DNA of 64,000 bases, from NCBI GenBank assembly GCA_944381365.1, contig CALWKW010000002.1, forward strand, positions 257,952 to 321,951, given 5' to 3'. Below the pieces are notes generated by a model. That model was not told the origin of the DNA. It saw only the letters and a list, made by a program, of their open reading frames with translations, and did not search any database. Source of the stretch: an uncultured Christensenellaceae bacterium. GTDB taxonomy: Bacteria; Bacillota; Clostridia; Christensenellales; UBA3700. The stretch's first letter is position 1. The number at the start of each line of letters is the position of its first letter. This document shows positions 6,816 to 24,840 of this stretch, piece after piece. The translations under genes and the position numbers were made by a program.

Positions 6816-6906
6816 GGAGAAATACCCAAGAGGCCGAAGGGGCTCCCCTGCTAAGGGAGTAGTACGGGAAACCGTAGCGAGGGTTCAAATCCCTCTTTCT
6901 CCGCCA
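6816..6906 (+). tRNA. tRNA-Ser: tRNA-Ser, anticodon GCU, with encoded CCA
   Basis: Hand-folded cloverleaf. Acceptor GGAGAAA/TTTCTCC, anticodon stem CTCCC/GGGAG with loop CTGCTAA, 19-nt long variable arm, T-arm GAGGG-TTCAAAT-CCCTC, discriminator G plus CCA. Confidence 0.95.
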
Positions 6907-7047
6907 AACAGAGTTGCGTTTGAACCCGCGGCTCTGTTATTTTTGTATTAAGGGGGTTGCCGGCATCATAATCGATACCGAAGTTTATGTTCCTCAATTG
7001 TCAGACTTCTACTTGACGCAGAAAAGAGATGAACACGGCAACTATAC

Positions 7048-7075
7048 AAAATAGACGGCACAAACCGTCTATTTT
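7048..7075 (-). terminator. Terminator hairpin downstream of the HEPN-like gene
   Basis: AAAATAGACGG-CACAAA-CCGTCTATTTT immediately after the stop of 7080..7844 (minus strand). Confidence 0.65.
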
Positions 7076-7079
7076 ATGT

Positions 7080-7844
7080 TTATCCTACAACAAAATTATC
7101 AATAATTTTCTGTAAATTTTGTTTTAGTCTTAAAAGAGCCTCTAAACAATTTTTAATTTTATTATAAAGTTCATTGTTTTGAATTGCATGAGTAAAATTT
7201 ATTGTCAAATATTGTCCGTGATTTATTTCCATCCTATCGGTATAATTATCCAAACACGATTCGTTATGTATTTCGTCATTTCTAACCTTATTGATAAAAC
7301 GTACGGAACTATTTATCTTGTATCTTTCAGCCTCATCATAAAATTCCTTAACATGGTTGTTACTTCGAGCGCATTCTTTAAGCGCATTCATAAAATCGCT
7401 ATTTCTTTCAGTTTTTTTCGGATCTAAATTCAGAATACTTCTTACTAAACTTTTTACTTTTTCCACATACATAAAAATTTCACAGCATACGCATCTGGCC
7501 TCATATCTCTGCCACACATTTAACAGCAATTTATTTATTTCTTCGTCACTCTCACTCCATAGCTTACAATAATGAATATAACTATATAATGAGTTTCTCA
7601 AATAGAAGATCGAGTTGTTGAATTTCCTTACTTTTTCTCTTAAATCTTTATTTATCAAATCACAGCTATCTTCACATTCTATATCAGAAACAGAAATTAG
7701 TTCAGTCAATCCATTCTTGGCGCAAAATTTTTTTGTGTCAATAAACAGTGAGTTTACATCAAAATAATTGACCTTAGTTTCTTGCCTATCCTCATTACTT
7801 GGCAAAGATTGTGCCGAAAACATATCATTTTGCATCATTATCAC
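7080..7844 (-). CDS. Hypothetical protein with a C-terminal HEPN-like Rx4H motif (candidate abortive-infection RNase)
   Basis: 254 aa, very low GC. 'FINKVRNDEIHNES' fits the HEPN R-x4-H signature in a predicted all-helical context. Single gene at the element edge. Confidence 0.4.
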   Translation of the reverse strand: MIMMQNDMFSAQSLPSNEDRQETKVNYFDVNSLFIDTKKFCAKNGLTELISVSDIECEDSCDLINKDLREKVRKFNNSIFYLRNSLYSYIHYCKLWSESDEEINKLLLNVWQRYEARCVCCEIFMYVEKVKSLVRSILNLDPKKTERNSDFMNALKECARSNNHVKEFYDEAERYKINSSVRFINKVRNDEIHNESCLDNYTDRMEINHGQYLTINFTHAIQNNELYNKIKNCLEALLRLKQNLQKIIDNFVVG

Positions 7845-7938
7845 CTATAAAAAATATTAACATTAAAATTTTCTCCTGAATTCAATTCAAAATTTTTATA
7901 AATAGTATATCATAATTATTGTAAAACTCAAATCAACG

Positions 7939-8217
7939 CTCCAAATTTTGCCGTTTCGTTGCGGCTATCGTAGCACAGATTTCGCAGAAGTCAATGCGAA
8001 AAAATATCGCTTAAAAATCAAATATCTCTTAATTTAAAAGCCGGGAAGAAATTTCTTCTCGGCTTTTTCTTTTGCTTTGAAAATCTAACAACTCCAACTC
8101 AATATTTTTTCGTGGCCGTTTGACTTCTGGTTTCTTTACTTCCAATAAACAGACCTATGCTCAATCGGTGCTGCTCAGCTACTGCCGAAAGGCAAAATAA
8201 ATTTGGAGGTAAATCCT
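7939..8217 (+). repeat. Conserved non-coding leader, copy A (homologous to 33913..34189)
   Basis: The 78-nt block 7939-8016 differs at only 5 positions from 33913-33990. A conserved hairpin with T-run lies at 8040-8068 (GCCGGGAAGAA-ATTT-CTTCTCGGC-TTTTT). A conserved block lies before the RBS. Confidence 0.8.
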
Positions 8218-8481
8218 ATGGAAAACAAAGTTTCCCAAATTCCTGAATTCAAGAGATATTATCTCTCAGAATTCGAACTCTATGACGGTGAAGAATTCAT
8301 CACCTTCAACATCGTAGGAATCGATGCTGCCAAGAATGAAATCCGGATAGCCGTTACCAACAGAGGCAAAATAAGCGTTATCACTTACGACCTTCTGACG
8401 GATAAAAACGGCAGACTGTATTTCGAGTACGGCGCCATGTTTGAACACGTCCATCTGGACGACTTCGAGGAGGTGGCGTAA
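8218..8481 (+). CDS. Small conserved hypothetical protein (module A gene 1; paralog of 34190..34453)
   Basis: ATG 8218 sits 8 nt after GGAGG. 87 aa, about 70% identical by eye to the module B copy. Confidence 0.7.
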   Translation: MENKVSQIPEFKRYYLSEFELYDGEEFITFNIVGIDAAKNEIRIAVTNRGKISVITYDLLTDKNGRLYFEYGAMFEHVHLDDFEEVA

Positions 8482-8894
8482 TGAAGCTTACTCTTGCAAA
8501 CATCAAAGAACTGAAACGTAACTCAAGCAGTCCGCTTATTAAGCGGGTTTGCAACTACGTTATAGGCGAATGGAGCGACTATTCCGATAAGAAAAGCATC
8601 TTTACCGACGTGCTTTATCACGGCTGTCAATCCGGTATTGTCGGAGAACTTATCTACTACACAGACACCGTGCGCTTCTACAAACAGTACAAGGAAGAAA
8701 TCAACAGCCTTCTGTACGACGCAATGGACGGTACAGGACTTTACGCTCCTTCCGAGCTATTCGGCGACAAGTGGGACAAAGAAGATCCGCTGGCGCAGTA
8801 CGACTACAATCAAAACCTTCTGGCGTGGTTCGGTTTCGAAGAGACGCTTAGGAACATCGCTTACAAATTTGAATCATTAGAAAACTACATTTAA
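8481..8894 (+). CDS. Conserved hypothetical protein (module A gene 2; paralog of 34453..34866)
   Basis: 137 aa. TAATG overlap with the upstream gene. High by-eye identity to the module B copy ('GELIYYTDTVRFYKQYKEEINSLLYD', 'SELFGDKWDKEDPLAQ'). Confidence 0.7.
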   Translation: MKLTLANIKELKRNSSSPLIKRVCNYVIGEWSDYSDKKSIFTDVLYHGCQSGIVGELIYYTDTVRFYKQYKEEINSLLYDAMDGTGLYAPSELFGDKWDKEDPLAQYDYNQNLLAWFGFEETLRNIAYKFESLENYI

Positions 8895-8906
8895 GGAGAA
8901 AAGACT

Positions 8907-9317
8907 ATGAAAACGACAATTACCAAAAAAGAAAAAGCAATCGAAATCATGAAGAAAATGGATATCTACAAGCCTTATATAAACGGATTTGAGCAGAAAG
9001 ATAAAGTATGCTTCTTTGAACAATTCGGCGGCTTCTGGATCGACCAAGAGCCTGAACTTTACGAAAAGATGAAAGCCCTCGAAGAAAAGCACAAGTGCAA
9101 GGTTTACGCCGTTACGCACGAATACACGGAATTCGGAGAACTTTACGACTTCCTTATCGTAACCGACTATCCCGAAGAATGGGATACCCTCGTATACAGT
9201 CAGGGCAACCGTCATACGGCTTTTGCTTACGTCTGGAACAAAGACGACGACTGGTGTTCGGAATTCGGCAGCGTTACCGTACAAAGCTTCGGGGGCGGTA
9301 TCAGAAGAATTGCGTAA
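8907..9317 (+). CDS. Conserved hypothetical protein (module A gene 3; paralog of 34880..35290)
   Basis: 136 aa. Starts 'MKTTITKK.KAIE.MKK.DIYKPYI.GFE.KDKVCFFEQFGGFWI.QEPELY' in both copies. Confidence 0.7.
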   Translation: MKTTITKKEKAIEIMKKMDIYKPYINGFEQKDKVCFFEQFGGFWIDQEPELYEKMKALEEKHKCKVYAVTHEYTEFGELYDFLIVTDYPEEWDTLVYSQGNRHTAFAYVWNKDDDWCSEFGSVTVQSFGGGIRRIA

Positions 9318-9325
9318 GGTGAAAT

Positions 9326-9628
9326 ATGAAAATTTACTTAGTAGTATTTGAATGGTCTACCGAAGATGACTCGGACGTAGATATTGAAGCTTTTTACACC
9401 TATGAAAAAGCTGCTCTAAGGTTTCAAGAACGCATAAACGAGGAAAAGACGGATATGTCTTGGGTGCATGAAGCTTTCGATGAAAACGGCGATATTCTTG
9501 ACGGATATGATTTCGATGAATGCCAGCCCGATACGCGTTTAGAAACTTATGCATATTGGAACATCACGAACAAATATAACTGGCAGATGCACGATTACAT
9601 CGCCATCATACAGTTGGAGGTGAAATAA
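9326..9628 (+). CDS. Small acidic hypothetical protein (present only in module A)
   Basis: 100 aa, rich in D/E ('EWSTEDDSDVDIEAFY', 'DENGDILDGYDFDECQPD'). Tightly packed in the operon. No counterpart in module B. Confidence 0.55.
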   Translation: MKIYLVVFEWSTEDDSDVDIEAFYTYEKAALRFQERINEEKTDMSWVHEAFDENGDILDGYDFDECQPDTRLETYAYWNITNKYNWQMHDYIAIIQLEVK

Positions 9629-9820
9629 ATGAAACCCTATAAAACAACAGCTCATATCCATTCCCGGAACGGTGAAATGGACGAAATAACGATAATCGAT
9701 AAAATCGGAGATAACGACTACATCGTGGACTATAAGGGCGTGAAATGTCACGCCCTTTTTAATTGGTTCAACTGCACCTACTACGCAGACGACCTCTACG
9801 GGAGAATCAACAATGACTAA
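9629..9820 (+). CDS. Small hypothetical protein (module A only)
   Basis: 63 aa. TAAATG junction with the upstream gene. Confidence 0.45.
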   Translation: MKPYKTTAHIHSRNGEMDEITIIDKIGDNDYIVDYKGVKCHALFNWFNCTYYADDLYGRINND

Positions 9821-10028
9821 CATCCAAAAACTTGCCGCAGAAGGCAATAAAAATCATAGGATTTTCGCGGCAACGGTCGTAGACCTTATGAATTCGCAAG
9901 GATTTTACGGTCGGCTTTACCGCTCCATCAACGAAATGGACGACGACAGATACGAACAGTTTTTTGAACTGATCGGCGAGCAGAATTTCAAAGATTCGCT
10001 GGATGTCGTACTCTGGCTCGAATGTTAA
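9813..10028 (+). CDS. Small hypothetical protein (module A only)
   Basis: 71 aa. 8-nt overlap with the upstream ORF. Same strand and operon. Confidence 0.45.
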   Translation: MTNIQKLAAEGNKNHRIFAATVVDLMNSQGFYGRLYRSINEMDDDRYEQFFELIGEQNFKDSLDVVLWLEC

Positions 10029-10048
10029 ATTACAGGAGGTATAACACT

Positions 10049-10423
10049 ATGGCTAAATTAGCAGAACTCAAAAAGTATCTGAATTACGAATTTTCATCCG
10101 GCTGTTATACGGGCGAAGATTACAAATCCTTTCAGACCAAATATATCAACTACCTGAAAGCAATGTGCCGTGAAAATCACTGGCAGCTTGTAAACGTCGG
10201 AAAAAATCATTACTGCTTCTCCGCTTTTATCAAGAGTGCGGATAACAAATGCGTTTACATCTCTGTAAGCGACGTCAGGTATTTCAACAACGAATGGCAC
10301 GACCATATTCTCATTCGCACGGCGCAAAACGAAGTCGATTACAAAGGCGGTTTTAACCATTACACCACACTCGACGGGTTGGAAGGAAAAGCCGCCGAAC
10401 TGCTCGACGATATGCCGTTTTAA
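10049..10423 (+). CDS. Conserved hypothetical protein (module A; paralog of 35305..35679)
   Basis: Start at MAKLAELKKY (ATG 10049, after AGGAGG). 124 aa in both copies. Shared blocks 'YTGEDYK.FQTKYINYLKAMC..NHWQLVNVGKNHYCFSAFIKS'. Confidence 0.7.
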   Translation: MAKLAELKKYLNYEFSSGCYTGEDYKSFQTKYINYLKAMCRENHWQLVNVGKNHYCFSAFIKSADNKCVYISVSDVRYFNNEWHDHILIRTAQNEVDYKGGFNHYTTLDGLEGKAAELLDDMPF

Positions 10424-10434
10424 GGAGGCGCAAT

Positions 10435-10704
10435 ATGAAATCAATCATTGAAGAACTGTATTACGGAAATATCTATGCAAAAGACATTGTATTACCCGAA
10501 AAGAAACGCAAAAAAGAACTTGCGCTTTACGACAAACTGAAAGCAACTTTGTCAAAAGAAAGCGACGAACTCTTTGAAAAATTTATCGAGCTTATAGATG
10601 ATCATTACGACGAACTGATGCTAATGATTTACAAACGCGGCGTTTCTACGGGAATTATGATTGCTGCCGAAGCATTTATCGAAGGAGAAAAACTATGCGA
10701 TTGA
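10435..10704 (+). CDS. Small hypothetical protein (module A only)
   Basis: 89 aa. RBS AAGGAGG upstream. No counterpart in module B. Confidence 0.5.
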   Translation: MKSIIEELYYGNIYAKDIVLPEKKRKKELALYDKLKATLSKESDELFEKFIELIDDHYDELMLMIYKRGVSTGIMIAAEAFIEGEKLCD

Positions 10705-11693
10705 ATCTTGAAACCAAAACAAAAGAACAGGAACTCGTAAAGGCATACCTTGAAGAGAACGCAAGCGAAACTCTTGTAGAGAAAATCAACAACGGCACGC
10801 CTTTTGAAAAGGACGGAAAGCAACTTATCAACCGCAAAACGCTGGACGGCTTTATGCGATACGCCTGCGACGAAGCGAGAAAGCTCGCGGCAAAAGGCGC
10901 AAACTCCGCTTGCGTGGAAGAAAAAGTCGTGTACGGCTGGGCGGTGCATTACTTCGAGGAGGAGTCCATAGAAGGCACGCTCTTTAACGAAGACGGTACA
11001 GAGTATAATCCTGCTCCGAAACCGACGCCTGCTCAGGTCAGGAAAGTAGAAGCGAAAAAGCCGGAACAGCGTCAACCTACGCTCTTTGATTTTATGGAAC
11101 CGGAATCACCCGAACCCGAAGTCAACGATGAAAACGGCGACGATGAGGACGAACAGCCTTCACAAGAAGAAATCGACGAAATCCTTGCCGAAATTGCCGA
11201 AGAAGAAAAATCCGATGCGGAACCGGAAAAGCTCGTTTCACCGATCTGGCAAAAATATCAAGAACTTCAAAAGGAACACTCCGACCGTATTCTCTTGTAT
11301 CGCTTGGGCGATTTTTATGAAGTTTTCGGGGATAATGCCGTAACTCTTTCCGATGAACTCGGCTTAACCCTTACAGGCAGAGATGTAGGACTTGAAAGCC
11401 GTATTCCGATGATAGGTTTTCCTTATCACGCAGCGAACAACTATCTCCCAAAAATAACTCAAAAACACAAAATAGCCGTCGCCGAAACGCCCGACGACGT
11501 AAAGCTGCTCCCTGAACCCGAAGACGACTTCGATGAGCTGACGGAAGAAGAAATGCGGGAGTTTGACGGCGATATAGAAGAACCGAAAGACCTTGACGAC
11601 GAACCCGATAACGGTTTCGACACTTCCGCTTTCGATAAAAACGCTCTCTGCAAACTCGATGAGATCTTCGGCGATAAACTTACTTTGAGGTGA
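10695..11693 (+). CDS. PcfK-like/AcrIIA9-family-like N-terminal domain, an acidic linker, and a MutS-domain-I-like insert (fusion protein)
   Basis: N-terminal ~115 aa match the module B paralog and, from memory, the PcfK-like family. Residues ~185-265, 'SPIWQKYQELQKEHSDRILLYRLGDFYEVFGDNAVTLSDELGLTLTGR...IPMIGFPYHAANNYLPKI', resemble the MutS N-terminal mismatch-binding domain. Long D/E-rich stretches are present. Confidence 0.55.
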   Translation: MRLNLETKTKEQELVKAYLEENASETLVEKINNGTPFEKDGKQLINRKTLDGFMRYACDEARKLAAKGANSACVEEKVVYGWAVHYFEEESIEGTLFNEDGTEYNPAPKPTPAQVRKVEAKKPEQRQPTLFDFMEPESPEPEVNDENGDDEDEQPSQEEIDEILAEIAEEEKSDAEPEKLVSPIWQKYQELQKEHSDRILLYRLGDFYEVFGDNAVTLSDELGLTLTGRDVGLESRIPMIGFPYHAANNYLPKITQKHKIAVAETPDDVKLLPEPEDDFDELTEEEMREFDGDIEEPKDLDDEPDNGFDTSAFDKNALCKLDEIFGDKLTLR

Positions 11694-11697
11694 AATT

Positions 11698-13017
11698 ATG
11701 AAAGTTACAGTCATCAAACCCATTCCAAAATACATATTGGAGAGAATCCGAAAGACGGACAACAAAAACTATCCGAACCCTGACGGTCACGTTCGCTGTT
11801 ATGCCTATCTTACCACTTGGAAAAACGAACTTGTGAAGGTGACCGTTGCCGTAAAGCACCGTTATAAAAAATGGTACTGCAAACAGGTTGCCGTACATGG
11901 ACTGAACTCGGATAAGTGCTTCGTAAAGGATATGGAATACTGCTACTGCGCAAGCATGGGCTTTCGTTTCGGCTGGTACGAAGAAGGCTTGCAAAAATAC
12001 AAAAACTGGTACGAACGCGGTTGGTGCTGGGCGGACGATAAATATTACGATCCATACGCTACGCTTATCAATCCCGACTTTATAGACCGCTTGCCGGAAT
12101 TCAAATTCAGCGCATATAAACTGTATCAGGGCTGCGATATTTTCAAGTATTTACGGCTTTATCGGCAGTATCCCCAGATTGAAATGCTGATGAAACTCGG
12201 CTTTTCGAGAATTGCCATGAGCACCACCATTCTTAAACGCTGCGGAACGGATAAAGCCTTCTGCAAATGGCTCATTTCCAACAAAGCGTTGCTTCAAAAC
12301 AGACACTACTATATCGACGTCATAATCCGTGCATATAGGACGAAAAAACCGCTTGAACAGTTGCAATCATATAAGGAAGAGAAGCTCAGACTAATCCATG
12401 ACAGCAGTCTTACTCCCATTAAAGAACTGTTCAAAGGAAAAGACCTTGAACGGCTCTTCGACTATATGCTAAAACAACAGACCAACCCGAACACTTATCT
12501 CGACTATCTGAAAGCCTGCCAACATCTCGGTCTGGATATGACAGAAGAAAAGGACCGTTTTCCCCACGATTTCAAACGCTGGCACGATATCCGAATCGAC
12601 GAATACGCCACGAAAAAGGCTATGGAAGACGAAGAAAAACGCAAGGAACTGTATATTCAATTTGCCGCCGTTGCGGAAAAATACCTGTCTTTGCAACACG
12701 CAAAACGAAGCTCATTTATCTGCATTATCGCCCACAGCCCGGCAGATCTGATTCGAGAAGGCGAAATGTTGCATCACTGCGTCGGCAGAATGGGTTACGA
12801 CCAAAAATTTGTCCGCGAAGAAACGCTCATTTTCTTTATCCGCAACAAGCAGGAACCCGATACGCCGTTCGTTACAGTCGAATACTCCTTGAAAAACCGG
12901 AAAATCCTGCAATGCTACGGAGAACACGACCACAAACCGAGCGAAGACGTACTGCATTACGTCAACAAAGTATGGCTGCCTTACGCCAACAGAACACTCA
13001 AACAAATTGCCGCATAG
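11698..13017 (+). CDS. PcfJ-like protein (paralog of 36319..37641)
   Basis: 439 aa. C-terminal 'EGEMLHHCVGRMGYDQKFVREETLIFFIR...PFVTVEYSL' block, as I recall for the PcfJ-like domain of conjugative plasmids and ICEs. Confidence 0.6.
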   Translation: MKVTVIKPIPKYILERIRKTDNKNYPNPDGHVRCYAYLTTWKNELVKVTVAVKHRYKKWYCKQVAVHGLNSDKCFVKDMEYCYCASMGFRFGWYEEGLQKYKNWYERGWCWADDKYYDPYATLINPDFIDRLPEFKFSAYKLYQGCDIFKYLRLYRQYPQIEMLMKLGFSRIAMSTTILKRCGTDKAFCKWLISNKALLQNRHYYIDVIIRAYRTKKPLEQLQSYKEEKLRLIHDSSLTPIKELFKGKDLERLFDYMLKQQTNPNTYLDYLKACQHLGLDMTEEKDRFPHDFKRWHDIRIDEYATKKAMEDEEKRKELYIQFAAVAEKYLSLQHAKRSSFICIIAHSPADLIREGEMLHHCVGRMGYDQKFVREETLIFFIRNKQEPDTPFVTVEYSLKNRKILQCYGEHDHKPSEDVLHYVNKVWLPYANRTLKQIAA

Positions 13018-13030
13018 GAGGAATTAAACA

Positions 13031-13315
13031 ATGGCAAACTATTTCAGAATTACAGCTTATCACCCGACCGAAAATCTCTCGGTCATTATGGATTCAAACG
13101 GACTGTTTGAAAAACTCTGGCAATTTTCATCCTTTATGGTATCCAAAGGCTTCAAAATCATAGAAGTCGGAGGCGAAGACAAATTCGATGATGGAGATAT
13201 GCCGAAAGCAGAATACGATAACGTCCACGTTATTTTGCGTGCATGCAAAAGCGGTGAAGCGGAAATTACAGGAAACCGCATTACGGTGGAAGGTAAATCA
13301 TACACTACACTATAA
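13031..13315 (+). CDS. Small conserved hypothetical protein (paralog of 37657..37941)
   Basis: 94 aa. 'YFRITAYHPTEN.SVIMDS.G.FEKLWQFSS..VSKGFKII.VGGEDKFD.GDMPK' is shared between both copies. Confidence 0.65.
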   Translation: MANYFRITAYHPTENLSVIMDSNGLFEKLWQFSSFMVSKGFKIIEVGGEDKFDDGDMPKAEYDNVHVILRACKSGEAEITGNRITVEGKSYTTL

Positions 13316-13350: not shown

Positions 13351-14766
13351 TTAATCTCCTTTTATATCAAACAATTGTTTTAACCTTCTTGAATTACTAA
13401 GTACGACTTGCTTCAATTGAATTTGAGGCAAACCTGCTCTTTCAAAAATCATAAAATATATCATTTTTTGCAATATTAGAGTGTCCAACATTACTGTATG
13501 ATAATCAATATTATTCTTTAATAAATGCGCTATGTCATTACGAGCATCCGTTATTCTATTAGCTAAATTAGTCATATCATAGCCAGTATATTTGGTCCCA
13601 AAACTGCTGGAGATTTGTGCTTTTGTTTTATCTAAACATTTTAGCATTTTAGCAAATACAAATTTTAGACGTGACCTTAAAGAACTTAATATTTTATCGA
13701 CACGATCTTTTTCACTCTTAATTATAGCTTTTTCAAGTTCTGTTTCTCCATCTGAATAATGAATTACACGCTTATAAGCAACCTTATAATCTTGTTCTTT
13801 AACACAATAATCCTCAATTCCTGCTTTTAGATTTTCCCTATACTGATTTTCAAACATGCTTGCACACCGCAATATATCTAATGGTTCACAAGTATTTGAT
13901 TTAGAATAATACAATTCTTTCAAATCAAAATTATCTATCAAAAACATTTTCATTATATTAGAAAAAACAGATTTTATAGTATCAAAATTAAAAATACTTT
14001 CTGTTAAAATACTTTTGGTGTCTTGTATAAAAAAAATATTTTCTATCAAAAAATTATTATCATTCGCTAAGTTCACATAGTTAATAAAATTCCCAGCATC
14101 ACAAAGCAAAAATTCACAATATCTATTAACCGCATTTACAATTCTTACAACCAAATCATCACTTATACTTTTATTCGCTTCAAACACAAACCCGCCAACA
14201 ATTTCTTTAGGGAATTTTATTTCCATAGATTGTTGGTTATGATTAAAATGGATTGCTGTGGATTTATATACTTTAATATGTATTTCATCGATATCAAACT
14301 CAGCGCATACTTCATTATCAATAAATCCGTTAGTATTATAATCAAAGCTATTGGGGGCAAAAAAATGTTCTAATAAGCATGGAGAAAAAACCTCTACTTT
14401 GAATATTGGAGAATCATTTCTAATTTTGCTTATTATTGATTTGACATAAAAACAAATTTCATAGCCATTGGTATAGCCATATTCTAAAAACGCAGTAAAG
14501 CCTTGCGAAATATCAACTTCCGAATCAAAATGTCCATACTCATGATTTCTATATTCATCAAAGCAAATCCATTTCTTATTTAAAGCTCTTATAACAACTA
14601 CATTTATATCATATCGCGAAATAAATCTAAAACTTGCAACGCCATTGTGAAAATTGTAACTTAAACGATTTCCGTCAATAGTTATTTCGCCTCTCGCAAT
14701 AAAATTATTAATGCGCTGAGCATCATTAAGTAAAAACTCACGAGCTATTTTCATAAATTTCTCCAC
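13351..14766 (-). CDS. HEPN-domain protein, ApeA-like (candidate single-gene abortive-infection defence)
   Basis: 471 aa, low GC. C-terminal 'ITDARNDIAHLLKN' is an R-x4-H HEPN motif. A large uncharacterised N-terminal region gives an architecture like ApeA (N-terminal domain plus HEPN). Confidence 0.45.
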   Translation of the reverse strand: MEKFMKIAREFLLNDAQRINNFIARGEITIDGNRLSYNFHNGVASFRFISRYDINVVVIRALNKKWICFDEYRNHEYGHFDSEVDISQGFTAFLEYGYTNGYEICFYVKSIISKIRNDSPIFKVEVFSPCLLEHFFAPNSFDYNTNGFIDNEVCAEFDIDEIHIKVYKSTAIHFNHNQQSMEIKFPKEIVGGFVFEANKSISDDLVVRIVNAVNRYCEFLLCDAGNFINYVNLANDNNFLIENIFFIQDTKSILTESIFNFDTIKSVFSNIMKMFLIDNFDLKELYYSKSNTCEPLDILRCASMFENQYRENLKAGIEDYCVKEQDYKVAYKRVIHYSDGETELEKAIIKSEKDRVDKILSSLRSRLKFVFAKMLKCLDKTKAQISSSFGTKYTGYDMTNLANRITDARNDIAHLLKNNIDYHTVMLDTLILQKMIYFMIFERAGLPQIQLKQVVLSNSRRLKQLFDIKGD

Positions 14767-14811
14767 GACTATAATGTAAACATTAAGCTTCTATATATCC
14801 AATCTAACTTT

Positions 14812-15315
14812 CTATAACTTAGGAATTATAGTATGATTATCTATTGTTTTACGGGAAATATCCCATTTAGCGACTTTGATTTTTTTGATTCTTTTACCAT
14901 CGCCAAAATCTAACAAGTCTTCTCTATGTAAGATATTTAGTACTTTATTTAAACTCCCAAGTCCAGCCGACGAAAGCAGATAGGCATCTTCCGGATCGCA
15001 AAGTTTGCAGTAAATCTGTAACTGCCCTAAATTGGGTAAAGTAAGGGGTGTCTTTTTTGCTTCAATAAAGTAAAGATGTGCTTTATTGCTCCATATTACC
15101 ATACCTAAAACATCTATTTCTATCTTTAAACCTACTACTTGAGGATAATAATTTATTATACCGTATTTTTCAAGTACGGAATCTAAATAGACTGAATGAC
15201 AATCGACAACTTTAATGTCACAATTTTGGCGTTTATATTTGTCAACTAGATATATTTCAAGCCATTTGCACATATCGGCATAAAGCTCAACTTCTTTAGC
15301 TACATTATTCTCCAT
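14812..15315 (-). CDS. Small PD-(D/E)xK-like nuclease-fold protein (candidate restriction subunit)
   Basis: 167 aa. 'KIEIDVLGMV...LYFIEAKK' gives a D...ExK arrangement. 11-nt overlap with the upstream gene in the MTase operon. Confidence 0.45.
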   Translation of the reverse strand: MENNVAKEVELYADMCKWLEIYLVDKYKRQNCDIKVVDCHSVYLDSVLEKYGIINYYPQVVGLKIEIDVLGMVIWSNKAHLYFIEAKKTPLTLPNLGQLQIYCKLCDPEDAYLLSSAGLGSLNKVLNILHREDLLDFGDGKRIKKIKVAKWDISRKTIDNHTIIPKL

Positions 15316-16183
15316 ACCCTAAATCCCTTGCCAAATCTGTCCATGAGTCATAATGTTTACCTCTAATGACTGCCGGTAGTGATTCATCATTTTCCATAGG
15401 ATGAATCGGTTTATGTTCTCTCCTTCTTATTGTTTTTTCCCAATAAAATTTATGCGTTTTGTTTTCGTCCAAATATTCTAAAAGTTCTTCCGAGTATTTT
15501 TCCAACGCGCGTTGTTTGTGAAGAATATTAAATCCTATTGGCATAAACTCATTAGCACATATTTTTACTTGGTGTTCTTTTTTCCAATAATAGGGTTTTC
15601 CTTGATTATACATTTTCAAATTTGAATCTCTAAAATTTGGATGTCCGAAATCTATAGTCTGCACCGGAATATCTAAGCTTTTTAGCATATTAGAGATGTC
15701 TATAACCATTTGCCAATTGCCTGGAATTTCAATGTAAACTCTATGGAATCCTTCTTGCCCATATGCCATATTACTACGTCGAATATAACCTGTCACATCA
15801 GCAATTCCGCGTAACAGCTCTTTTTTTTCGTCATTTGATAACGAGAACAATTCGCTATTCATTGTCATTGTAGAATGATGAACACCGTTTCCAATAAATC
15901 GCATAATTTCTCGCATCGTATAATCGGCATTTGGCTTGGTAAAAGATATTTGCGTAACTCTTTTCCCTTGAACAATAGGTAATGAGTGCCCAATCAATGG
16001 TTCAACAACGCACCGTATATCTGCTAAACTGCTTTTTACATATACGGAAACTTCACGCCCTTCATCGTCCCTTAAATTTTTATGAGGCAACTCTATCGTA
16101 ATTGTAGTTGTATCTTCTTTACGTTGCACCTCGCCGTTTCCTAAAATCATTCCAATTAAATATGCCATTTGCGCATTCATCAT
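15305..16183 (-). CDS. Double-motif LAGLIDADG-like protein with both catalytic acidic positions substituted (candidate DNA-recognition subunit)
   Basis: 292 aa. 'AYLIGMILGNGEV' aligns to LAGLIDADG with N at position 8. 'LLRGIADVTGYI' is a second motif with T at position 8. ATGA overlap with the C5-MTase gene. Confidence 0.4.
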   Translation of the reverse strand: MMNAQMAYLIGMILGNGEVQRKEDTTTITIELPHKNLRDDEGREVSVYVKSSLADIRCVVEPLIGHSLPIVQGKRVTQISFTKPNADYTMREIMRFIGNGVHHSTMTMNSELFSLSNDEKKELLRGIADVTGYIRRSNMAYGQEGFHRVYIEIPGNWQMVIDISNMLKSLDIPVQTIDFGHPNFRDSNLKMYNQGKPYYWKKEHQVKICANEFMPIGFNILHKQRALEKYSEELLEYLDENKTHKFYWEKTIRRREHKPIHPMENDESLPAVIRGKHYDSWTDLARDLGYGE

Positions 16184-17274
16184 TGTTCTCCTTGCTCGTC
16201 AACTGTATCATTATATATTTTATCAGCTATCGCCTTTGCCATCAATGGTGGAACAGCATTTCCTATTTGAGTACGCACTGCGACTTTTGTACCGTAAAAA
16301 ATATAGGTATCATCAAAAGATTGAATGCGTGCTGCCTCACGAGGAGTAATAGCGCGGTTCAATACCGGATGATTATTGGTTCCGTTAGAGGCCGCATCAA
16401 ATCTGGTATCTATCGTCGGAGAAGCTTCGTCCCATTTTAGGCGTCCCCAAGTTGAATGAAATTTTTGTTTGCCGAGAAGCTCTTCGGGTAAAAACTCTTT
16501 TCCTTTCTCAGGGGGGATCATCTGTAATTTTTGTATCGCAATTTGAGCATGATTGGAAGCCTTATGATTATATAGTTTTGCGCTATTTCTCCTCATCATT
16601 TTTTGATAATCAGTCGATGCTGGCAACCTATAATCTTGCTCAAAAGCTCCTTCTCCCGATTCCAAATATGCCAAATCACTTATTGCTTCACGAACAGTAA
16701 CAGTTTTACTGCAAGTCGGTAATGGCAAACATATTTTTTTATTCTTACAGCAAATGAAGATTGTTCTTTCTCTTGTTTGAGGAACGCCAAAATCACTTGC
16801 TTTTAATACGCCGACATCAACATTGTAACCGAGTTTATTTATTGCAGATATAATCTCTTCTTTAAACCAACCTTTAGATGTAGAAAGCAGAGTTTTAACA
16901 TTTTCAATAACAAAAACTTCCGGCTGTAACCTTTCTACCAATTTCAAATACTCAATGAAAAGAAAATTACGAGGATCCTTAAGTCCAAGTTTTTTTCCTT
17001 TCATAGAGTAACCCTGACACGGTGGCCCGCCAATTATCATATTGACTTTATATTTAAGAGATTGCTCTATTACTTCATTCTTCACTTCTTGCGTTTTAAT
17101 ATCGCCAACAATAACATGGACATCCGGCATATTCTTCTTAAGAGTAATAGCTAGTTTATCATTTATGTCTAAAGCGACAACTGTTTTGAAGTGGGGATTC
17201 AAATGCATCCCATAAGACATTCCACCTGCGCCACAAAACAAATCAAGTATTCTATAATTGACATCTATGTTCAT
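16180..17274 (-). CDS. DNA (cytosine-5)-methyltransferase
   Basis: Motif I 'DLFCGAGGMS', motif IV 'GGPPCQGYS', motif VI 'FVIENV', motif VIII 'QTRERTIFI', motif X 'QIGNAVPP'. Confidence 0.92.
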   Translation of the reverse strand: MNIDVNYRILDLFCGAGGMSYGMHLNPHFKTVVALDINDKLAITLKKNMPDVHVIVGDIKTQEVKNEVIEQSLKYKVNMIIGGPPCQGYSMKGKKLGLKDPRNFLFIEYLKLVERLQPEVFVIENVKTLLSTSKGWFKEEIISAINKLGYNVDVGVLKASDFGVPQTRERTIFICCKNKKICLPLPTCSKTVTVREAISDLAYLESGEGAFEQDYRLPASTDYQKMMRRNSAKLYNHKASNHAQIAIQKLQMIPPEKGKEFLPEELLGKQKFHSTWGRLKWDEASPTIDTRFDAASNGTNNHPVLNRAITPREAARIQSFDDTYIFYGTKVAVRTQIGNAVPPLMAKAIADKIYNDTVDEQGEQ

Positions 17275-18299
17275 TTAATCTTCTTCCTGATAAGTATTCT
17301 TTTGAAAATATCTTTTCCTTTGATTCTTGGCTTAAATAAGTCGAACTCATTATCGGAGCCATGATTTGCCTCACCAATTATTTCAAACTGAGAATCATTA
17401 TGATACTTTAGATAAGTAAGAGGAACTCCCATTATTCCCGTATAATCTGATGGAATTTCCAAAACTCTAGAAACATTTATAGCGTCAAAATCATCATACT
17501 TAGGATATTTTTCCGGATCGTACTTACAGGTTAAGACTAATTGCTGATGCTTACGTTCATTATCTAAATTGGTAAGCCACATTGCATTTCCTAAGCTACG
17601 CCATTTCTGCCCGGTTTCGTCGACCCAAAATCTATATTTTCTAGGTTGTGTATCATTCGGGACTTTAAAAGCCATATCGCCAAAACGGTAACCAATCCAA
17701 GCTTGCCCACTTTTAATGAAAGGAAAAATCTCTTTATAAGTTATAGCATTTTGATTGCCAATTAACAAGTATTGTTTCTTATATTTTACCAACAATGAGA
17801 ACAAGTCTATGAATTTAGAAAAAGGTGGATTTGTGACTACTATATCAGCCTCCTTAAGATATTCAACACATTCCTCACTTCTAAAATCGCCGTCACCTTT
17901 TAATTTCTTAACAACCTTTAATTTATTTATTAGATCTGTTATACTGTCACCATGAAGTAAGACTTCCTCAATATTAGGAAATTGTTCTACAACCATTACA
18001 TAAGCAGCATTATCTACTAGCGGAGAATAATTGTCATCTACTATAGTCGACTGAGCAACAATTCTTGATCCCTTATAAGAGGTACAAATTAATTTTTTTA
18101 GTTTCAGTGTATTAAAATTTTTCAAAAAATAGGTTGTAAAAGCAGATTTGTAAGGATCATCACAATTACATAAAACAACCTTTCCTTGAAATTGTTCAGA
18201 ATAATGAGAAATCTCCGACTCTACAGTTGCATAGTCGGTGTACCATTCGTCTGTGTTTTCAGTATATCTAGCTTTATTAAGTATAGAATTGTTTGCCAC
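17271..18299 (-). CDS. N6-adenine DNA methyltransferase, EcoRI-methylase-like family
   Basis: 'DEWYTDYATVE...GKVVLCNCDDP...GDFRSEE...ADIVVTNPPFSKF...LLIGNQNAITYKE...YPKYDDFDAINV' matches my recollection of the EcoRI_methylase family. NPPF catalytic motif. Confidence 0.75.
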   Translation of the reverse strand: MANNSILNKARYTENTDEWYTDYATVESEISHYSEQFQGKVVLCNCDDPYKSAFTTYFLKNFNTLKLKKLICTSYKGSRIVAQSTIVDDNYSPLVDNAAYVMVVEQFPNIEEVLLHGDSITDLINKLKVVKKLKGDGDFRSEECVEYLKEADIVVTNPPFSKFIDLFSLLVKYKKQYLLIGNQNAITYKEIFPFIKSGQAWIGYRFGDMAFKVPNDTQPRKYRFWVDETGQKWRSLGNAMWLTNLDNERKHQQLVLTCKYDPEKYPKYDDFDAINVSRVLEIPSDYTGIMGVPLTYLKYHNDSQFEIIGEANHGSDNEFDLFKPRIKGKDIFKRILIRKKIK

Positions 18300-18667: not shown

Positions 18668-18835
18668 CGCGGCGTGTGCTTGTCTTGATACGAGAGCGGC
18701 GTCGCTCCGCTCCGCCGCGACAAGCACACGCCACGTAAACTTAACTCGACTGAAATACGGAAAAGCGGAGTGCTGACGGAAGCGGAGTCGCCCGCTGAAC
18801 CGCTTGGGCGATCTTCCGCTTTCACCGTCACACAT
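18668..18835. other. GC-rich hairpin plus iteron-like region (candidate rolling-circle origin or nick site for the adjacent HUH protein)
   Basis: 14-bp perfect inverted repeat GGCGTGTGCTTGTC (18671-18684) / GACAAGCACACGCC (18719-18732) with a 34-nt GC-rich loop. Direct repeats ACGGAA(AA)GCGGAGT at 18757-18771 and 18776-18788, plus an inverted partial copy CTTCCGCTT at 18813-18821. Lies directly 3' of the Rep gene. Confidence 0.45.
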
Positions 18836-18870: not shown

Positions 18871-19920
18871 TCAGTTACATTTGCGCATTTGCTCGATGAC
18901 GGCTTTACTCACTTTGCCCATATAGCAGCCTTCGTCCCAGCACGAGAAATCGTCAAAAAGAAGCAGTTTCTTATCTTCAAGACCTATCGGACAGACGACA
19001 TCTTCGTCCATAATGTCCGAGATAAAGAATTGCGGCAATCCCTTAGAATAGACCATCTTTTCGCCTGTTTTCTCCATGTACTTTGTAAGATAAGCTATTG
19101 CTTCACCCAACATAGAACGATCGTCTACCGTTTTGAAATCGGATCTACCGAACCGTTTATTGAAATACGAGTTCTGTATTGTTGTCTGTACCTTCTTTTT
19201 GATAGGAGAATAGTCCTTGACTTCAACGAGTTCGCCCGGCATCGAGCCTTCGGGGATATAGAACAACCCGTGGAAATGCAGACGCTGTTTTTCGGGAGAG
19301 CGTTCCCATACGCCGACATACTTCCAATCTTTACGGTGGCACATCATTTTGAAACAGCCTTGAAGCTTCTTTTTGAAACTTTCTTCCGTGTGCTTTTCGC
19401 CGTCGTAGGTAAACGTGCAGAAATAGTTAAACTCCTGCAAATTAACCTTGCGGGTAAGCCTTACACGCCGACAAACAAGATTGCGTAATTTACGTTCAAA
19501 TTGCTCATTCACATACATTACCGTGCTTTTTTCGTCCTTAAAATACGGGTTCATGTTGTGAATGATAAATTTCTTCCTATCACTTCTGGTCTTTCCTGCA
19601 GTGGATTTATATAATTCCTCAAACAATTCCTTTCTTGTCATTGTCCTTACCTTCGGCTGTGATTCGGATTGCGGTTCAGACTCAGACTCTGACGATTCAA
19701 TATTTTTCTCAAGTGCAATAGGCGCATCGTCATTCTCCGACGGTGCGCTTTTAGTTGCCTTGCTATTTTCTTCTGTTTCGGTGGGCGGTTCGGCTTCTTT
19801 TTCCGTTACAACGATTTCTTCTTCCGGCGGTTTTTCCCGCCGCCTTGACGGCCTTGTCGTGTGCGGTATTCCTATGTAATGACTGCCGTCAAAGTAGATT
19901 TTACATTCGCCGTATGGCAT
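18871..19920 (-). CDS. HUH-superfamily rolling-circle replication initiator or relaxase-like protein
   Basis: Start at MPYGECKIY (ATG 19920 after GGAGG). Motif 1 'FCTFTYD', HUH motif 'LHFHGLFYI', Tyr motif 'AIAYLTKYMEK'. Acidic/Ser-rich linker near the N-terminus. Confidence 0.7.
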   Translation of the reverse strand: MPYGECKIYFDGSHYIGIPHTTRPSRRREKPPEEEIVVTEKEAEPPTETEENSKATKSAPSENDDAPIALEKNIESSESESEPQSESQPKVRTMTRKELFEELYKSTAGKTRSDRKKFIIHNMNPYFKDEKSTVMYVNEQFERKLRNLVCRRVRLTRKVNLQEFNYFCTFTYDGEKHTEESFKKKLQGCFKMMCHRKDWKYVGVWERSPEKQRLHFHGLFYIPEGSMPGELVEVKDYSPIKKKVQTTIQNSYFNKRFGRSDFKTVDDRSMLGEAIAYLTKYMEKTGEKMVYSKGLPQFFISDIMDEDVVCPIGLEDKKLLLFDDFSCWDEGCYMGKVSKAVIEQMRKCN

Positions 19921-19952
19921 AGATACCTCCTTTACAGGAGTACCGACCATCT

Positions 19953-22079
19953 TTACGCAGAACCCGTTTCGTCGGTATCCCTGTACAATGAATTGATAAA
20001 ATAACTGTTCTGCATTTTGAGCTCGTCAACGCTCGCTTTTTCGGTTACGTATTCGAGATAATCGCCGAGTCCGATATTTGTTTTCTTCGCCATATCGTTG
20101 AAATAATCGCTGAAACAGTCCGTCGAAAAACGGCGGCTGTAAATCTTCTTATTCATCAGATAATACTTCTTGTTTTCCGGCTTTCCGTCCATCGTGCCGC
20201 GCTCTTTTTCTATCTTCAAAACCGAATAGCCGAATCTGTTGAATATCCTTACGTTCCTGCGCCATATCCACGACGTTACGCATTTCAGCAAATGCACAAG
20301 CAACGTATTGTCGCCCCTGCGGAAACGGAAATCGTAGTACATGGCAATGAACCGGTTGAACGTCCATTCGCTTATCATTTCTTCTATCGTGTAGAACGGC
20401 AGCGCAAGTCTTTGCTCTCCCGATTGCACGATATGGATTATGTCGCACAGATCTCTTGCGTCGGCGCCCCAGCTTTCGGGCCGCTGTTCGTCCGTAAAGA
20501 CTTTGATGAACGGGAAATTATCCACCGTTGCCGAGTGACGGCACATTTTGAGCCACGCATTGAACAAGTCGTTTTTCTGATTTGTTTCTTCCGTTCCCTT
20601 CTTGACCTCTTTGAGCTCCAGATTATTGCCGCGCTCTTTGCCTATCTCCGAAATCGCCACAACGCCGAATTCAAAGCTGCCTGCCTTCGGGTTATTTTCT
20701 ATGACCTTTTTTCCGAGCCTTAACACATCGAAATCGAGGATATGCGCGTGCCTGCCTTCGGTAATCCCTTCGGGAAAAAAATCGGACGCCCAGATGGGAA
20801 AATTGCCTTCGCTTACAAGCTCGTTATCCTCTCGAATAGAATAGTTCGCCACGATAAGGCTGCTTTCGATAACATAGATGAAGTACGCCTGAGCGTATGT
20901 TTCCAACACTTCGAACAGAGTACTTACTTTCAGTCCGTCGTTAAAGGTCTGACCGTAACGGCAAATATCGTAGCCGTATAATTGCAGGTCCGTTCTGCCA
21001 TTCCTAAGGTAGCGATTTTCTTTCAGCTTTACCCATTCCTTGACCGTTGCAAGATTGTACACGGTGCCGTGTTCCATACAAAGCCTCAGTTCGTCCTCAA
21101 AAGCTATCCACGGGAACATAGGGAATTTCATATCGTTGTTTTTCAGAATGTCGTATGCCTTTTGTCGGAACATAACTTCCTGCGAGAGAGTCATATCCGT
21201 AATGAGCGTTGTCTTTTTCTTTCCCATACTTCCGCAAGAGATAGACACGATGGGTACTTCGTTGATAAACCCGCAATTACGGGCTTCGAAATGCCGCAGT
21301 CTGTTCAGGGCGATTGACTTTCTCCAACGGTTGAAGATGAGCCACGCTATCGTTGCAATACTCCACCACGGGAAGTGTCGGAAGATGACCTGCAAGTCGA
21401 TAAGTAGCTTGCACACCTGCGTATATATAGACGCGACGTCGAAGGACGCCGAAAAGTAAAAGTAATAGGCAAAGAATCCTAATACGATACTTACGAGATT
21501 GAGATGGAACGCCCACAGTACGAGCCAGCATATCCACAGCCAATTCGTGTGTTTCAGAAAATCGATATAGCCGAGTACGAACCGTTTTACAGGCTGATAT
21601 GTAGCACGAGATACCGATTTGAACACTTTAAGAGGCAGCGTATCTTTGTTGTGCTTCGTGTTTCCGCTTGCATAGAGCCGTTTCAACGCAAAGACAAATA
21701 CGAGCACGCAAGGGAGCGCAATCGCAATCACATTTGCCGCAACCGCCGATTTATCTCCGACCACCGACCAATAGCCGATGAAATTTTCCTTGTCTACAAA
21801 GAGTTCAAAAAACCGTGCCGCCGAAACCTTGAACGTATCAAAGTCCGAAGGGAGCAAGATATCCCACTTCATAACTTCCGACCAAGCATTTACGGCGGGA
21901 GCGGTATTGTGTGCGATGCCGAAGATCTCCGCGAAGTAAAACTTGATTGAATCTATCAGGTTGCCGCCTGCCTCGAACGCTCTGAGATAAGAAGACGAAA
22001 AGACGAAGAAGCCGAGAAGGACAAAGCCTACCGACACGATTGCCGAAAATATGATATTGACTGTTTTTCGTCTGTTCAT
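19953..22079 (-). CDS. Polytopic membrane protein with a C-terminal Zot/pI-like P-loop NTPase region
   Basis: 708 aa. The first ~260 aa contain several hydrophobic helices. These are followed by a deviant Walker A 'SCGSMGKKKTT', 'FGVVAISEIGKE', and 'WLKMCRHSATVDNFPFIKVFTDEQRPESWGADAR', which by eye parallels Ff pI 'LLVLDECG...FLHARKLGWDIIFLVQD...KQAR'. Confidence 0.45.
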   Translation of the reverse strand: MNRRKTVNIIFSAIVSVGFVLLGFFVFSSSYLRAFEAGGNLIDSIKFYFAEIFGIAHNTAPAVNAWSEVMKWDILLPSDFDTFKVSAARFFELFVDKENFIGYWSVVGDKSAVAANVIAIALPCVLVFVFALKRLYASGNTKHNKDTLPLKVFKSVSRATYQPVKRFVLGYIDFLKHTNWLWICWLVLWAFHLNLVSIVLGFFAYYFYFSASFDVASIYTQVCKLLIDLQVIFRHFPWWSIATIAWLIFNRWRKSIALNRLRHFEARNCGFINEVPIVSISCGSMGKKKTTLITDMTLSQEVMFRQKAYDILKNNDMKFPMFPWIAFEDELRLCMEHGTVYNLATVKEWVKLKENRYLRNGRTDLQLYGYDICRYGQTFNDGLKVSTLFEVLETYAQAYFIYVIESSLIVANYSIREDNELVSEGNFPIWASDFFPEGITEGRHAHILDFDVLRLGKKVIENNPKAGSFEFGVVAISEIGKERGNNLELKEVKKGTEETNQKNDLFNAWLKMCRHSATVDNFPFIKVFTDEQRPESWGADARDLCDIIHIVQSGEQRLALPFYTIEEMISEWTFNRFIAMYYDFRFRRGDNTLLVHLLKCVTSWIWRRNVRIFNRFGYSVLKIEKERGTMDGKPENKKYYLMNKKIYSRRFSTDCFSDYFNDMAKKTNIGLGDYLEYVTEKASVDELKMQNSYFINSLYRDTDETGSA

Positions 22080-22210: not shown

Positions 22211-22213
22211 TTG

Positions 22214-24825: not shown

Positions 24826-24840
24826 GGTTCACCTCCGTCA

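Follow-up and report, generated by a model that had tools for sequence, protein, structure and literature searches.

We found that the two PcfK/PcfJ operons in a 64,000-nucleotide stretch of DNA from an uncultured Christensenellaceae bacterium (contig CALWKW010000002.1, positions 257,952 to 321,951; hereafter the window) are orthologous accessory operons of two related, separately acquired integrative elements that lie head-to-tail at one tRNA-Ser gene. The operons, designated module A and module B, have two features that are new: a clamp-type motif, QxSLFDΦ, in every intact PcfK, and a MutS_I domain that keeps its Phe-X-Glu contact in most PcfK proteins of the element family. The explanation of the whole that we favor, with slightly more confidence than doubt, joins this history of stacked elements to an operon that would serve in establishment and counter-defence.

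The two modules are diverged copies of one operon

The original prediction described seven collinear genes shared by the modules at 65-80% amino acid identity; their positions proved exact (Table 1), and the protein identities spanned 64-85%, with values in gene order of 74.7, 82.5, 84.6, 79.0, 63.8, 69.5, and 66.0% (BLASTP E-values from 1e-46 to 0). Codon-aware pairwise alignment gave a nucleotide identity of 66-79%, and of 44-60% at third positions. The GC content at third codon positions (GC3) was higher in module A for every gene (0.42-0.57 vs. 0.23-0.40), as had also been claimed. The pairwise comparison of substitution rates that the prediction proposed yielded dN values of 0.075-0.27, while dS was saturated, so that the NG86 method failed to return a value in five of the seven genes; dN/dS was about 0.02-0.22, and since it does not exceed about 0.2, both copies are under purifying selection. 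Four small genes are found in copy A only, which also has a PcfK longer by 125 amino acids (aa) than that of copy B. The homology extends approximately 290 bp into the upstream non-coding DNA (7930-8217 and 33904-34189), where two blocks are 89-97% conserved, which is above the conservation of the genes themselves. An all-against-all comparison of the open reading frames (ORFs) within the window revealed no duplicated genes beyond the two modules. Matches of the module genes in PHROGs were to families without assigned function only.

Element A and its ends

Module A is part of what appears to be a complete, intact-looking 25.5-kb integrative element in tRNA-Ser (element A; 6907-32460), in which we found a recombinase gene at one end, an att core at both junctions, a tRNA gene at attL, and recurrence of the element elsewhere. 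From left to right, element A consists of attL, an integrase-tail ORF, a small cargo site, a conserved non-coding block, module A, and a large cargo slot; Rep and membrane-protein genes follow as a convergent cluster, and then come regulators, a LexA-like repressor, a serine recombinase, and attR. Its backbone is GC-rich (0.44-0.49), and the composition of module A agrees with it. Both methyltransferases (MTases) in the large slot are type II according to PADLOC. Because CCGCCA is present at both junctions, element A was delimited to 6907-32460, with element B beginning at 32461. A copy of the tRNA 3' end at attR was searched for and rejected, as none occurred within three mismatches; the 6-bp core is all that the ends have in common, which is what a serine recombinase would lead one to expect.

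The serine-recombinase ORF ends two codons past the att core, and when joined to attL it remains open in frame for 49 further codons; the predicted attP junction of the excised element A reads ...GACCCTGCCCGCCAAACAGAGTTGCG... This integrase-tail ORF is also open in five related loci (L004, L007, L008, L009, and L014), in which synonymous changes exceed non-synonymous changes. Since the tail is in frame and has been kept open in these loci, the full-length serine integrase is probably made only from the excised circle. The sequence 6907-7085 recurs directly upstream of the module leader in L004, L008, L009, and L014, each time beside a tRNA-Ser of varying anticodon, which identifies the HEPN-like gene (7080-7844) as an insertion; this gene is absent at the corresponding spot in L004 and L009, and is 99% identical in L007.

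A second, small cargo site was observed between attL and the conserved block. In L004 and L009 this site is empty; element A and L007 have the HEPN-like gene there, and element B and L075 have a DUF4238 gene. PADLOC did not recognize the HEPN, DUF4238, or unknown cargo genes.

Element B and tandem accretion

Element B is a decayed element stacked directly behind element A, of which only the left end and module B have been kept. From position 32456 the window is homologous to L075 with 87% nucleotide identity, and in that locus the homology begins at the 3' end of tRNA-Ser(tga), followed by the same DUF4238 gene and then by an A-type module. Downstream of module B, no Rep cluster, recombinase, or remnants or pseudogenes of either were detected (E<0.1), nor could a right end be located for element B; module B is followed instead by ABC transporters, a truncated HsdM, a PDC-S14 gene, and a Mko/Hhe-like helicase (Pfam, PADLOC). 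The same stacked junction, with LexA, serine recombinase, and a second module, is present in L013. There are at least four copies in the CALWRH genome (L006, L013, L014, and L061) and two in CALVQW (L009 and L010), and in such multi-copy genomes they occupy different tRNA-Ser isoacceptors or lie in tandem. Across the family, the GC3 of PcfJ ranges from 0.16 to 0.65 and follows flank composition and lineage, with values of 0.47-0.65 among the relatives of module A. Within the representative set, identity to module B does not exceed 73% at any locus.

Two collinear copies in the same orientation, 26 kb apart, would fit a local tandem duplication of a single module, after which the copies diverged and one of them ameliorated to the host composition. 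However, only the module and its 290-bp leader are common to both places, the remainder of element A having no second copy, and copy A is closer to elements of other genomes (86-91% identity) than to copy B (64-85%). The left end of element B matches the independent tRNA-proximal end in L075, dS is saturated, and GC3 tracks lineage within the family. With nothing else duplicated, we rejected local duplication, which we regard as scarcely credible. Composition and the saturated dS together indicate separate origins, and the two copies are explained by two relatives that were acquired separately and accreted in tandem, and not by local duplication. Thus, the suggestion that the modules came from different donors was borne out in the form of two elements of separate lineages stacked at one att site, and the modules were found in mobile elements and not in the core chromosome.

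Tandem accretion at tRNA genes is known for streptococcal integrative and conjugative elements (ICEs) and integrative and mobilizable elements (IMEs). The present case resembles it in that related elements share one attachment site with a hybrid inner att, and one partner has decayed; it differs in that the recombinase is of the large serine type, with an ORF that extends across attP. The two-copy arrangement itself is ordinary mobile-element biology.

Several further features were seen downstream of module B. A 99-nt tandem duplication (41120-41317; 97% identical) lies inside a 497-aa Flg_new-repeat gene, which the truncated HsdM (42402-43463) abuts. The PDC-S14 candidate defence gene (GIY-YIG + DUF4357) is located at 44450-45283, and the 1006-aa Mko/Hhe-like helicase, with DUF2726, at 46365-49385 on the minus strand. 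These last two genes may be the remainder of the cargo slot of element B.

Table 1. Features of elements A and B, in window coordinates.
Feature	Position	Strand	Basis or remark
tRNA-Ser(gct)	6816-6906	+	ARAGORN, Rfam
attL crossover core CCGCCA	6901-6906		last six bases of tRNA-Ser
Integrase-tail ORF, 49 codons	6905-7054	+	in-frame continuation of the serine recombinase across attP
HEPN-like cargo gene	7080-7844	-	weak HEPN_Cthe2314 match; between attL and conserved block
Conserved 75-nt non-coding block	7939-8016		strandless
Promoter-like site TTGACT-16-TGcTACGAT	7967-7994	-	promoter scan; inside conserved block
Terminator-like hairpin with T-run	8036-8067	+	between block and module A
Module A, variable upstream part	8218-10704	+	eight small, mostly acidic genes (g1, g2, g3, three A-only genes, g7, DUF6809); presence varies between loci
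g1-A	8218-8481	+	ORF list
g2-A	8481-8894	+	DUF7222 (Pfam)
g3-A	8907-9317	+	ORF list
Three A-only genes	9326-9628, 9629-9820, 9813-10028	+	no counterpart in B
g7-A	10049-10423	+	ORF list
DUF6809 gene, A-only	10435-10704	+	Pfam; fourth gene without counterpart in B
PcfK-A (PcfK + MutS_I)	10695-11693	+	Pfam
PcfJ-A	11698-13017	+	Pfam, E 1e-31
g11-A, 94 aa	13031-13315	+	last of the triad PcfK-PcfJ-g11
Cargo slot	13351-18299	-	HEPN_Apea-like gene, two unknown genes, Dcm-type MTase, EcoRI-type MTase; GC 0.30-0.38
Backbone cluster	18871-27713	-	Rep, p708, 44-aa transmembrane ORF, p671, p199, p338, p356, p118, p101
Regulators	28406-30658	-	sigma-70 region-4 protein (28406-28918), zinc-ribbon ORFs, LexA/S24-type repressor (30017-30658)
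Large serine recombinase	30927-32465	+	
attR core CCGCCA	32456-32461		two codons before the recombinase stop
DUF4238 cargo gene	32722-33900	+	Pfam; left end of element B
Conserved block, copy B	33913-33990		
Terminator hairpin, copy B	34010-34039		
Module B	34190-37941	+	seven intact genes
First four genes of module B	34190-34453, 34453-34866, 34880-35290, 35305-35679	+	
PcfK-B	35690-36313	+	QVSLFDF motif, without MutS_I
PcfJ-B	36319-37641	+	Pfam, E 1.5e-28
g11-B	37657-37941	+	

The module belongs to the backbone of a single family of elements

We recovered 80 loci by scanning a single genome for each species and mapped the window proteins onto them; all 80 came from metagenome-assembled genomes of uncultured gut Clostridia, Christensenellaceae, or Eubacteriales. 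The triad PcfK-PcfJ-g11 was nearly universal, with its members present in 68-81 of 82 loci and g11 directly following PcfJ in 68 of 82; the small genes upstream of the triad varied between loci. In related loci a tRNA-Ser gene (cga, tga, gga, or gct) lies 170-270 bp upstream of the module. The Rep/p708/p671 cluster follows the module convergently, separated from g11 by 595 bp or by 1-14 kb of variable DNA. Given the near-universal triad and the constant layout, the module belongs to the backbone of a single element family, and the view of a free-standing toolkit reused by different elements had to be abandoned.

The gap between g11 and rep is the cargo hotspot of the family, and mostly contains restriction-modification (R-M) and other defence genes. 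It is empty (595 bp) in L030, L031, L037, L046, and L074, and reaches 13.9 kb in relatives. A Pfam census of 70 slot ORFs was dominated by Dcm and other methyltransferases, restriction subunits, Vsr, AAA_21, Schlafen-type helicases, YpsA/SLOG, surface LRR proteins, and stray integrases. The YpsA/SLOG-family gene recurs in the slot near rep (7 of the 70 ORFs; L005, L010, L020, L022, and others).

A tblastn search with PcfJ led to MT835493 (L001), a 57-kb scaffold labeled "UNVERIFIED bacteriophage" and deposited from a faecal virome, which is syntenic with element A from the module through the LexA-like gene; the backbone cluster is syntenic in this scaffold and in more than 25 loci. The g11-rep slot of MT835493 (16949-30135) holds an Ssp-type phosphorothioation set (cysteine desulfurase, DUF4007, a 1202-aa protein, and PAPS reductase) together with a PLD-helicase and an AAA_23 protein, and the scaffold also carries host metabolic genes.

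PcfK carries a conserved clamp-type motif and, in most loci, a MutS_I domain

In the profile searches, PcfK-B scored above the Pfam cut-off for PF14058 (36.7 bits vs. 27 bits), and PcfK-A fell just under it (25.3 bits) but is 64% identical to PcfK-B over 207 aa; the proposed assignment therefore stands for B on its own score and for A through its homology to B. The proteins are 332 aa (A) and 207 aa (B) long, with net charges of -45 and -19, respectively. PcfK-A is composed of an N-terminal PcfK domain, a Pro/Lys linker, QPTLFDF (aa 127-133), an acidic stretch, MutS_I, and a conserved C-terminal tail; the motif-bearing peptide is KPEQRQPTLFDFMEPE.

The motif, Q-x-[ST]-[LMF]-F-[DE]-Φ (abbreviated QxSLFDΦ), forms a conserved island in the otherwise variable Pro/Lys linker, and reads QLSLFDF in several loci. 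In an alignment of 76 PcfK proteins of the loci, its columns were counted over 73 sequences and contained Q in 70/73, S or T in 70/73, L, M, F, or I in 73/73, F in 73/73, and D or E in 71/73. In addition, 790 PcfK hits were reduced to 150 representatives of 50%-identity clusters; the strict motif was present in 98 of these, and nearly all of the others were close variants or frameshifted ORFs. In plasmid and phage PcfK the motif is the protein's C-terminus (QLSLLDML*, QMSIFDFLDEA*). The bacterial β-clamp-binding consensus is QLxLF, which is used by other mobile-element proteins, usually at the C-terminus (PMC4549789). The PcfK motif, a conserved QLxLF-type peptide in a variable linker or at the terminus, thus looks like a β-sliding-clamp docking site.

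The mismatch-binding MutS_I domain (PF01624) of PcfK-A spans aa 182-268 (E 6.5e-21; 75.1 bits vs. a cut-off of 20.6). These approximately 87 residues align to residues 11-98 of E. coli MutS and retain both the Phe-X-Glu contact, as GDFYE (F36-Y-E38 of MutS), and IPMxGxPYH. The domain stands alone in PcfK-A, unlike in MutS, without the connector, lever, clamp, and ATPase domains. The fusion, in which the domain lies between the motif and the conserved tail, was found in 46 of 77 loci and in 47 of the 150 representative clusters, with more than 6,500 homologues; PcfK-B does not have it.

PcfK is also the domain of AcrIIA9, an SpyCas9 inhibitor recovered by functional metagenomics of the human gut (PMC6739104; PMC6538845), whose homologues are very numerous and seldom located beside aca genes (PMC6739104). 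Over the core, both PcfK copies show 31-34% identity to a plasmid protein that bears an AcrIIA9-family annotation (E 3e-6 and 1e-8). As in the window, that plasmid protein adjoins a PcfJ gene and carries Q-x-S-L-[FL]-D, and the N-terminal PcfK domain is common to AcrIIA9 and PF14058 members such as PcfK-B. In contrast to the 141-aa AcrIIA9, the PcfK proteins of 207 and 332 aa have an internal motif followed by an acidic stretch, an optional MutS_I, and a conserved tail, and no CRISPR locus was seen in the window.

PcfJ and PcfK-PcfJ pairs in other mobile elements

Both PcfJ proteins were assigned as originally proposed, scoring 110.2 (A) and 99.9 bits (B) against a cut-off of 25 bits for PF14284. 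An HCV motif is conserved in the PcfJ family, as its Pfam description states. PcfJ-A is a basic protein of 439 aa (pI 9.2), in which LHHCVG occupies aa 358-363, and C361, V362, and G363 were invariant in 48 sequences. Its AF2 model was of high confidence (pLDDT 90.7); the matches of this model in BFVD were only to PcfJ-like phage proteins, many of them from tailed phages including lytic SPO1-like phages.

PcfJ and PcfK are named from the conjugative plasmid pCF10. Homologues of PcfJ were found in 530 plasmid records, mostly from Enterococcus (356 typed as mobilizable and 108 as conjugative), and in 206 phage genomes, including strictly lytic myoviruses, so the claim that these genes are typical of leading regions was not sustained. 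IMG/VR contained only three contigs of the PcfJ subfamily. A PcfK-like gene lies directly upstream of PcfJ in Streptococcus phage Javan569 and in the E. faecium plasmid pEF7150-3, in which the PcfK-like protein is annotated as "Cas9 inhibitor AcrIIA9 family protein". Since the two genes are adjacent in an Enterococcus plasmid and a Streptococcus prophage as well, PcfK-PcfJ appears to work as a unit across kinds of mobile element. The window therefore shares with pCF10-type plasmids and Firmicutes phages the same Pfam families, the same gene order, and the HCV motif; it differs in that the carrier is a chromosomal serine-integrase/rolling-circle element without a type IV secretion system (T4SS), and its PcfJ subfamily is about 25-30% identical to the plasmid and phage members. 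A literature search on PcfJ/PcfK function returned almost nothing specific.

The backbone cluster and the question of transfer

The Rep protein of element A is of the ORF2/G2P type (phiX A/gpII type), a two-tyrosine rolling-circle initiator with HUH and YLTKY motifs. The genes that come next in the cluster encode p708 (19953-22079, minus strand), a 708-aa membrane protein in which an N-terminal multi-transmembrane (TM) region is followed by GSMGKKKTT, a deviant P-loop; p671, which is 671 aa long and has a C-terminal anchor in addition to its signal peptide; p199, a 199-aa TM protein; and p338 and p356, which are paralogous lipoproteins. Beyond Rep, the membrane and secreted proteins of the backbone had no match in Pfam, PHROGs, NCBIfam, or the PDB, and comparison of Rep, p671, and p118 with PDB sequences gave nothing. 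For p708, whose more than 2,600 homologues (about 72% identity) all lack annotation, sequence and profile searches of Pfam, PHROGs, NCBIfam, and the PDB found no match and no detectable homology to an ATPase family; an AF2 model of its fold was unusable (pLDDT 33), and IMG/VR held no relatives.

Two smaller features were noted in this region. A 44-aa single-TM ORF (22076-22210, minus strand), the sole short TM ORF of the backbone, lies between p671 and p708. Just 3' of rep, a GC-rich 17-bp inverted repeat with a single-strand fold z-score of -4.6 (18668-18735) is conserved in L004, L006, L019, and L020, and may be a rolling-circle origin or merely a terminator.

As the original prediction had stated, the window is without a T4SS or a known relaxase: Pfam scans of all large ORFs revealed no relaxase, coupling protein, VirB4, or other T4SS domain. 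Given this, and since PcfJ is no less common in phages than in plasmids, "leading region" can serve only as an analogy. The operons resemble the leading-region anti-defence islands described by Samuel and Burstein in 2024 (PMC11541004) in that they consist of co-oriented small, mostly acidic genes at the end of an element, contain a domain with a reported anti-CRISPR (Acr) member, and have methyltransferases nearby; unlike in those islands, no oriT, relaxase, ssDNA promoter, SSB, PsiB, or ArdA was found here. The text of that study does not mention Pcf, and one of its supplementary tables lists a 19-member PcfJ-like family (PMC11541004). We consider it very unlikely that the modules are true leading regions, that is, the first DNA to enter in conjugation and an early block of restriction or CRISPR, with p708/p671 forming an unrecognized conjugation machine and Rep acting as the relaxase. 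The origin of the Pcf names in pCF10, the many mobilizable and conjugative plasmids among the PcfJ records, the PcfJ-like family in the supplementary table, the co-oriented operon at the element end, and a membrane protein with a P-loop-like motif would all agree with it; however, no ORF has a T4SS domain, no oriT could be identified, Rep belongs to the phiX A/gpII type and to no known MOB family, p708 has neither a usable model nor ATPase-family homology, and PcfJ is equally frequent in phages.

A carrier that is a chronic filamentous (inovirus-like) prophage, with the module as its early or accessory region, is distinctly improbable, if somewhat less so, and would be compatible with the functional reading that we favor. 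A pI-like ATPase together with short single-TM proteins are named as hallmarks of inoviruses, some of which integrate by means of serine or tyrosine recombinases (Roux et al., PMC6813254). The match of Rep to the ORF2/G2P family of inoviruses and plectroviruses, the pIII-like topology of p671, the 44-aa single-TM ORF and the 118-aa protein, and the deposition of the syntenic MT835493 from a faecal virome all point toward such a phage. Nevertheless, there was no Zot/pI match and no PHROG match for any backbone gene, the genes are long with only one short TM ORF, the backbone of approximately 19 kb is large, IMG/VR holds no p708 relative and only the three PcfJ-subfamily contigs, and MT835493 carries host genes as well.

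The pSAM2-type rolling-circle integrative elements of actinomycetes are a further comparison system. Like inoviruses and pSAM2-type elements, element A is integrated at a tRNA gene and has a rolling-circle Rep and membrane proteins to which no role is assigned, but no ATPase of the pI/Zot or FtsK/TraB type was detectable in it, and the host phylum differs.

The non-coding leader

The 75-nt block in the leader is about 80% conserved among loci whose PcfJ proteins are approximately 50% identical. The minus-strand promoter-like site within it has an A/T-rich upstream tract and points away from the module, with the HEPN gene downstream of it in element A. The terminator hairpin between block and module shows compensatory changes in 9 of 9 pairs across 24 loci (RNAalifold). 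A structured RNA or riboswitch was considered and rejected, as the leader had no Rfam match and RNAalifold found the terminator hairpin only, with no helix in the 75-nt block. No second copy of the block core was found near rep.

Discussion

We propose that the operon may act as an establishment or counter-defence unit on element DNA replicating in the cell, either after entry or after SOS-induced excision. The very acidic PcfK, with its AcrIIA9 domain, would dock on the host β sliding clamp through QxSLFDΦ, and at the clamp PcfK and the basic PcfJ would shield rolling-circle or newly converted DNA from host DNA-targeting systems, e.g., Cas9-type nucleases. The PcfK copies with MutS_I might also occupy mismatches and interfere with, or exploit, clamp-coupled mismatch repair, and copy B, without this domain, would keep the core activity only. 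An anti-defence or establishment function is plausible because PcfK is the domain found in AcrIIA9, and this is the one point from which the anti-defence part of the proposal derives. The counter-defence reading also fits the position of the operon, as the adjoining cargo hotspots are full of defence genes, R-M among them.

Several points weigh against this proposal. Homologues of AcrIIA9 occur mostly in genomes without type II-A CRISPR (PMC6739104), and a later paper reports that AcrIIA8, from the same screen, does not inhibit Cas9 (PMC13239955); taken together, these observations mean that the Acr label may not describe the native role of PcfK. PcfK-A lies below the Pfam cut-off, and a search of NCBIfam at E<=0.01 gave no AcrIIA9-family match for either PcfK-A or PcfK-B. 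The small module genes had no match to a known anti-defence family, no dedicated anti-defence set of hidden Markov models having been used, and the PcfJ-A model had no fold match in the PDB that would suggest its role. The clamp-type motif is internal in this element family and not C-terminal, and such a short linear motif could bind another partner, e.g., PcfJ. An isolated MutS domain I may be weak in DNA binding. The timing implied by "establishment" is an assumption, and the functional steps beyond the sequence features are ones that we infer.

The main rival is a replication accessory without a defence role, in which the clamp-docking PcfK and PcfJ would recruit the host replisome, for example for complementary-strand synthesis on rolling-circle single-stranded DNA, or for phage or plasmid replication in other elements. 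We regard this as unlikely, although it is the strongest of the alternatives. It would account for the universal clamp-type motif, for a Rep that is a two-tyrosine rolling-circle initiator, for the PcfK-PcfJ pair of Javan569 directly upstream of a "DNA replication protein" in an early replication region, and for PcfJ in lytic phages that never conjugate. On the other hand, the module is located at the far end from rep with the cargo slot between them, the PcfK domain has one member with reported anti-Cas9 activity, and PcfK is extremely acidic and has no recognizable DNA-metabolism domain except MutS_I.

A more specific combination can be put forward, although we hold its joint truth to be unlikely: PcfK proteins, including "AcrIIA9", would be clamp-tethered factors, PcfK-MutS_I would be a mismatch-repair decoy or sensor at the replication fork of the element, and the carrier would have a new transfer mode. 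If so, PcfK-MutS_I would be a counter-measure against a host surveillance pathway not yet counted among anti-defence targets. The fusion is carried by abundant elements of gut Clostridia with a rolling-circle Rep, an integrase ORF spanning attP, and unclassifiable p708/p671 machinery.

The interest of these findings lies in the PcfK motif, the MutS_I fusion, and the abundant, unclassified carrier element. The carriers are very abundant integrative elements of human and animal gut Clostridia with no recognizable transfer machinery; members of the family are stacked in tandem at tRNA-Ser genes, and in their fixed hotspot they shuttle defence systems, including R-M and phosphorothioation. Few "hypothetical" pairs are commoner than PcfJ and PcfK in the plasmids, ICEs, and phages of Firmicutes and Bacteroidetes, and PcfK is widely annotated as an anti-CRISPR on the basis of one screen. 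The clamp-type motif and the frequent MutS_I fusion offer concrete, cheap handles on the function of PcfK, and may alter the reading of thousands of "AcrIIA9" annotations.

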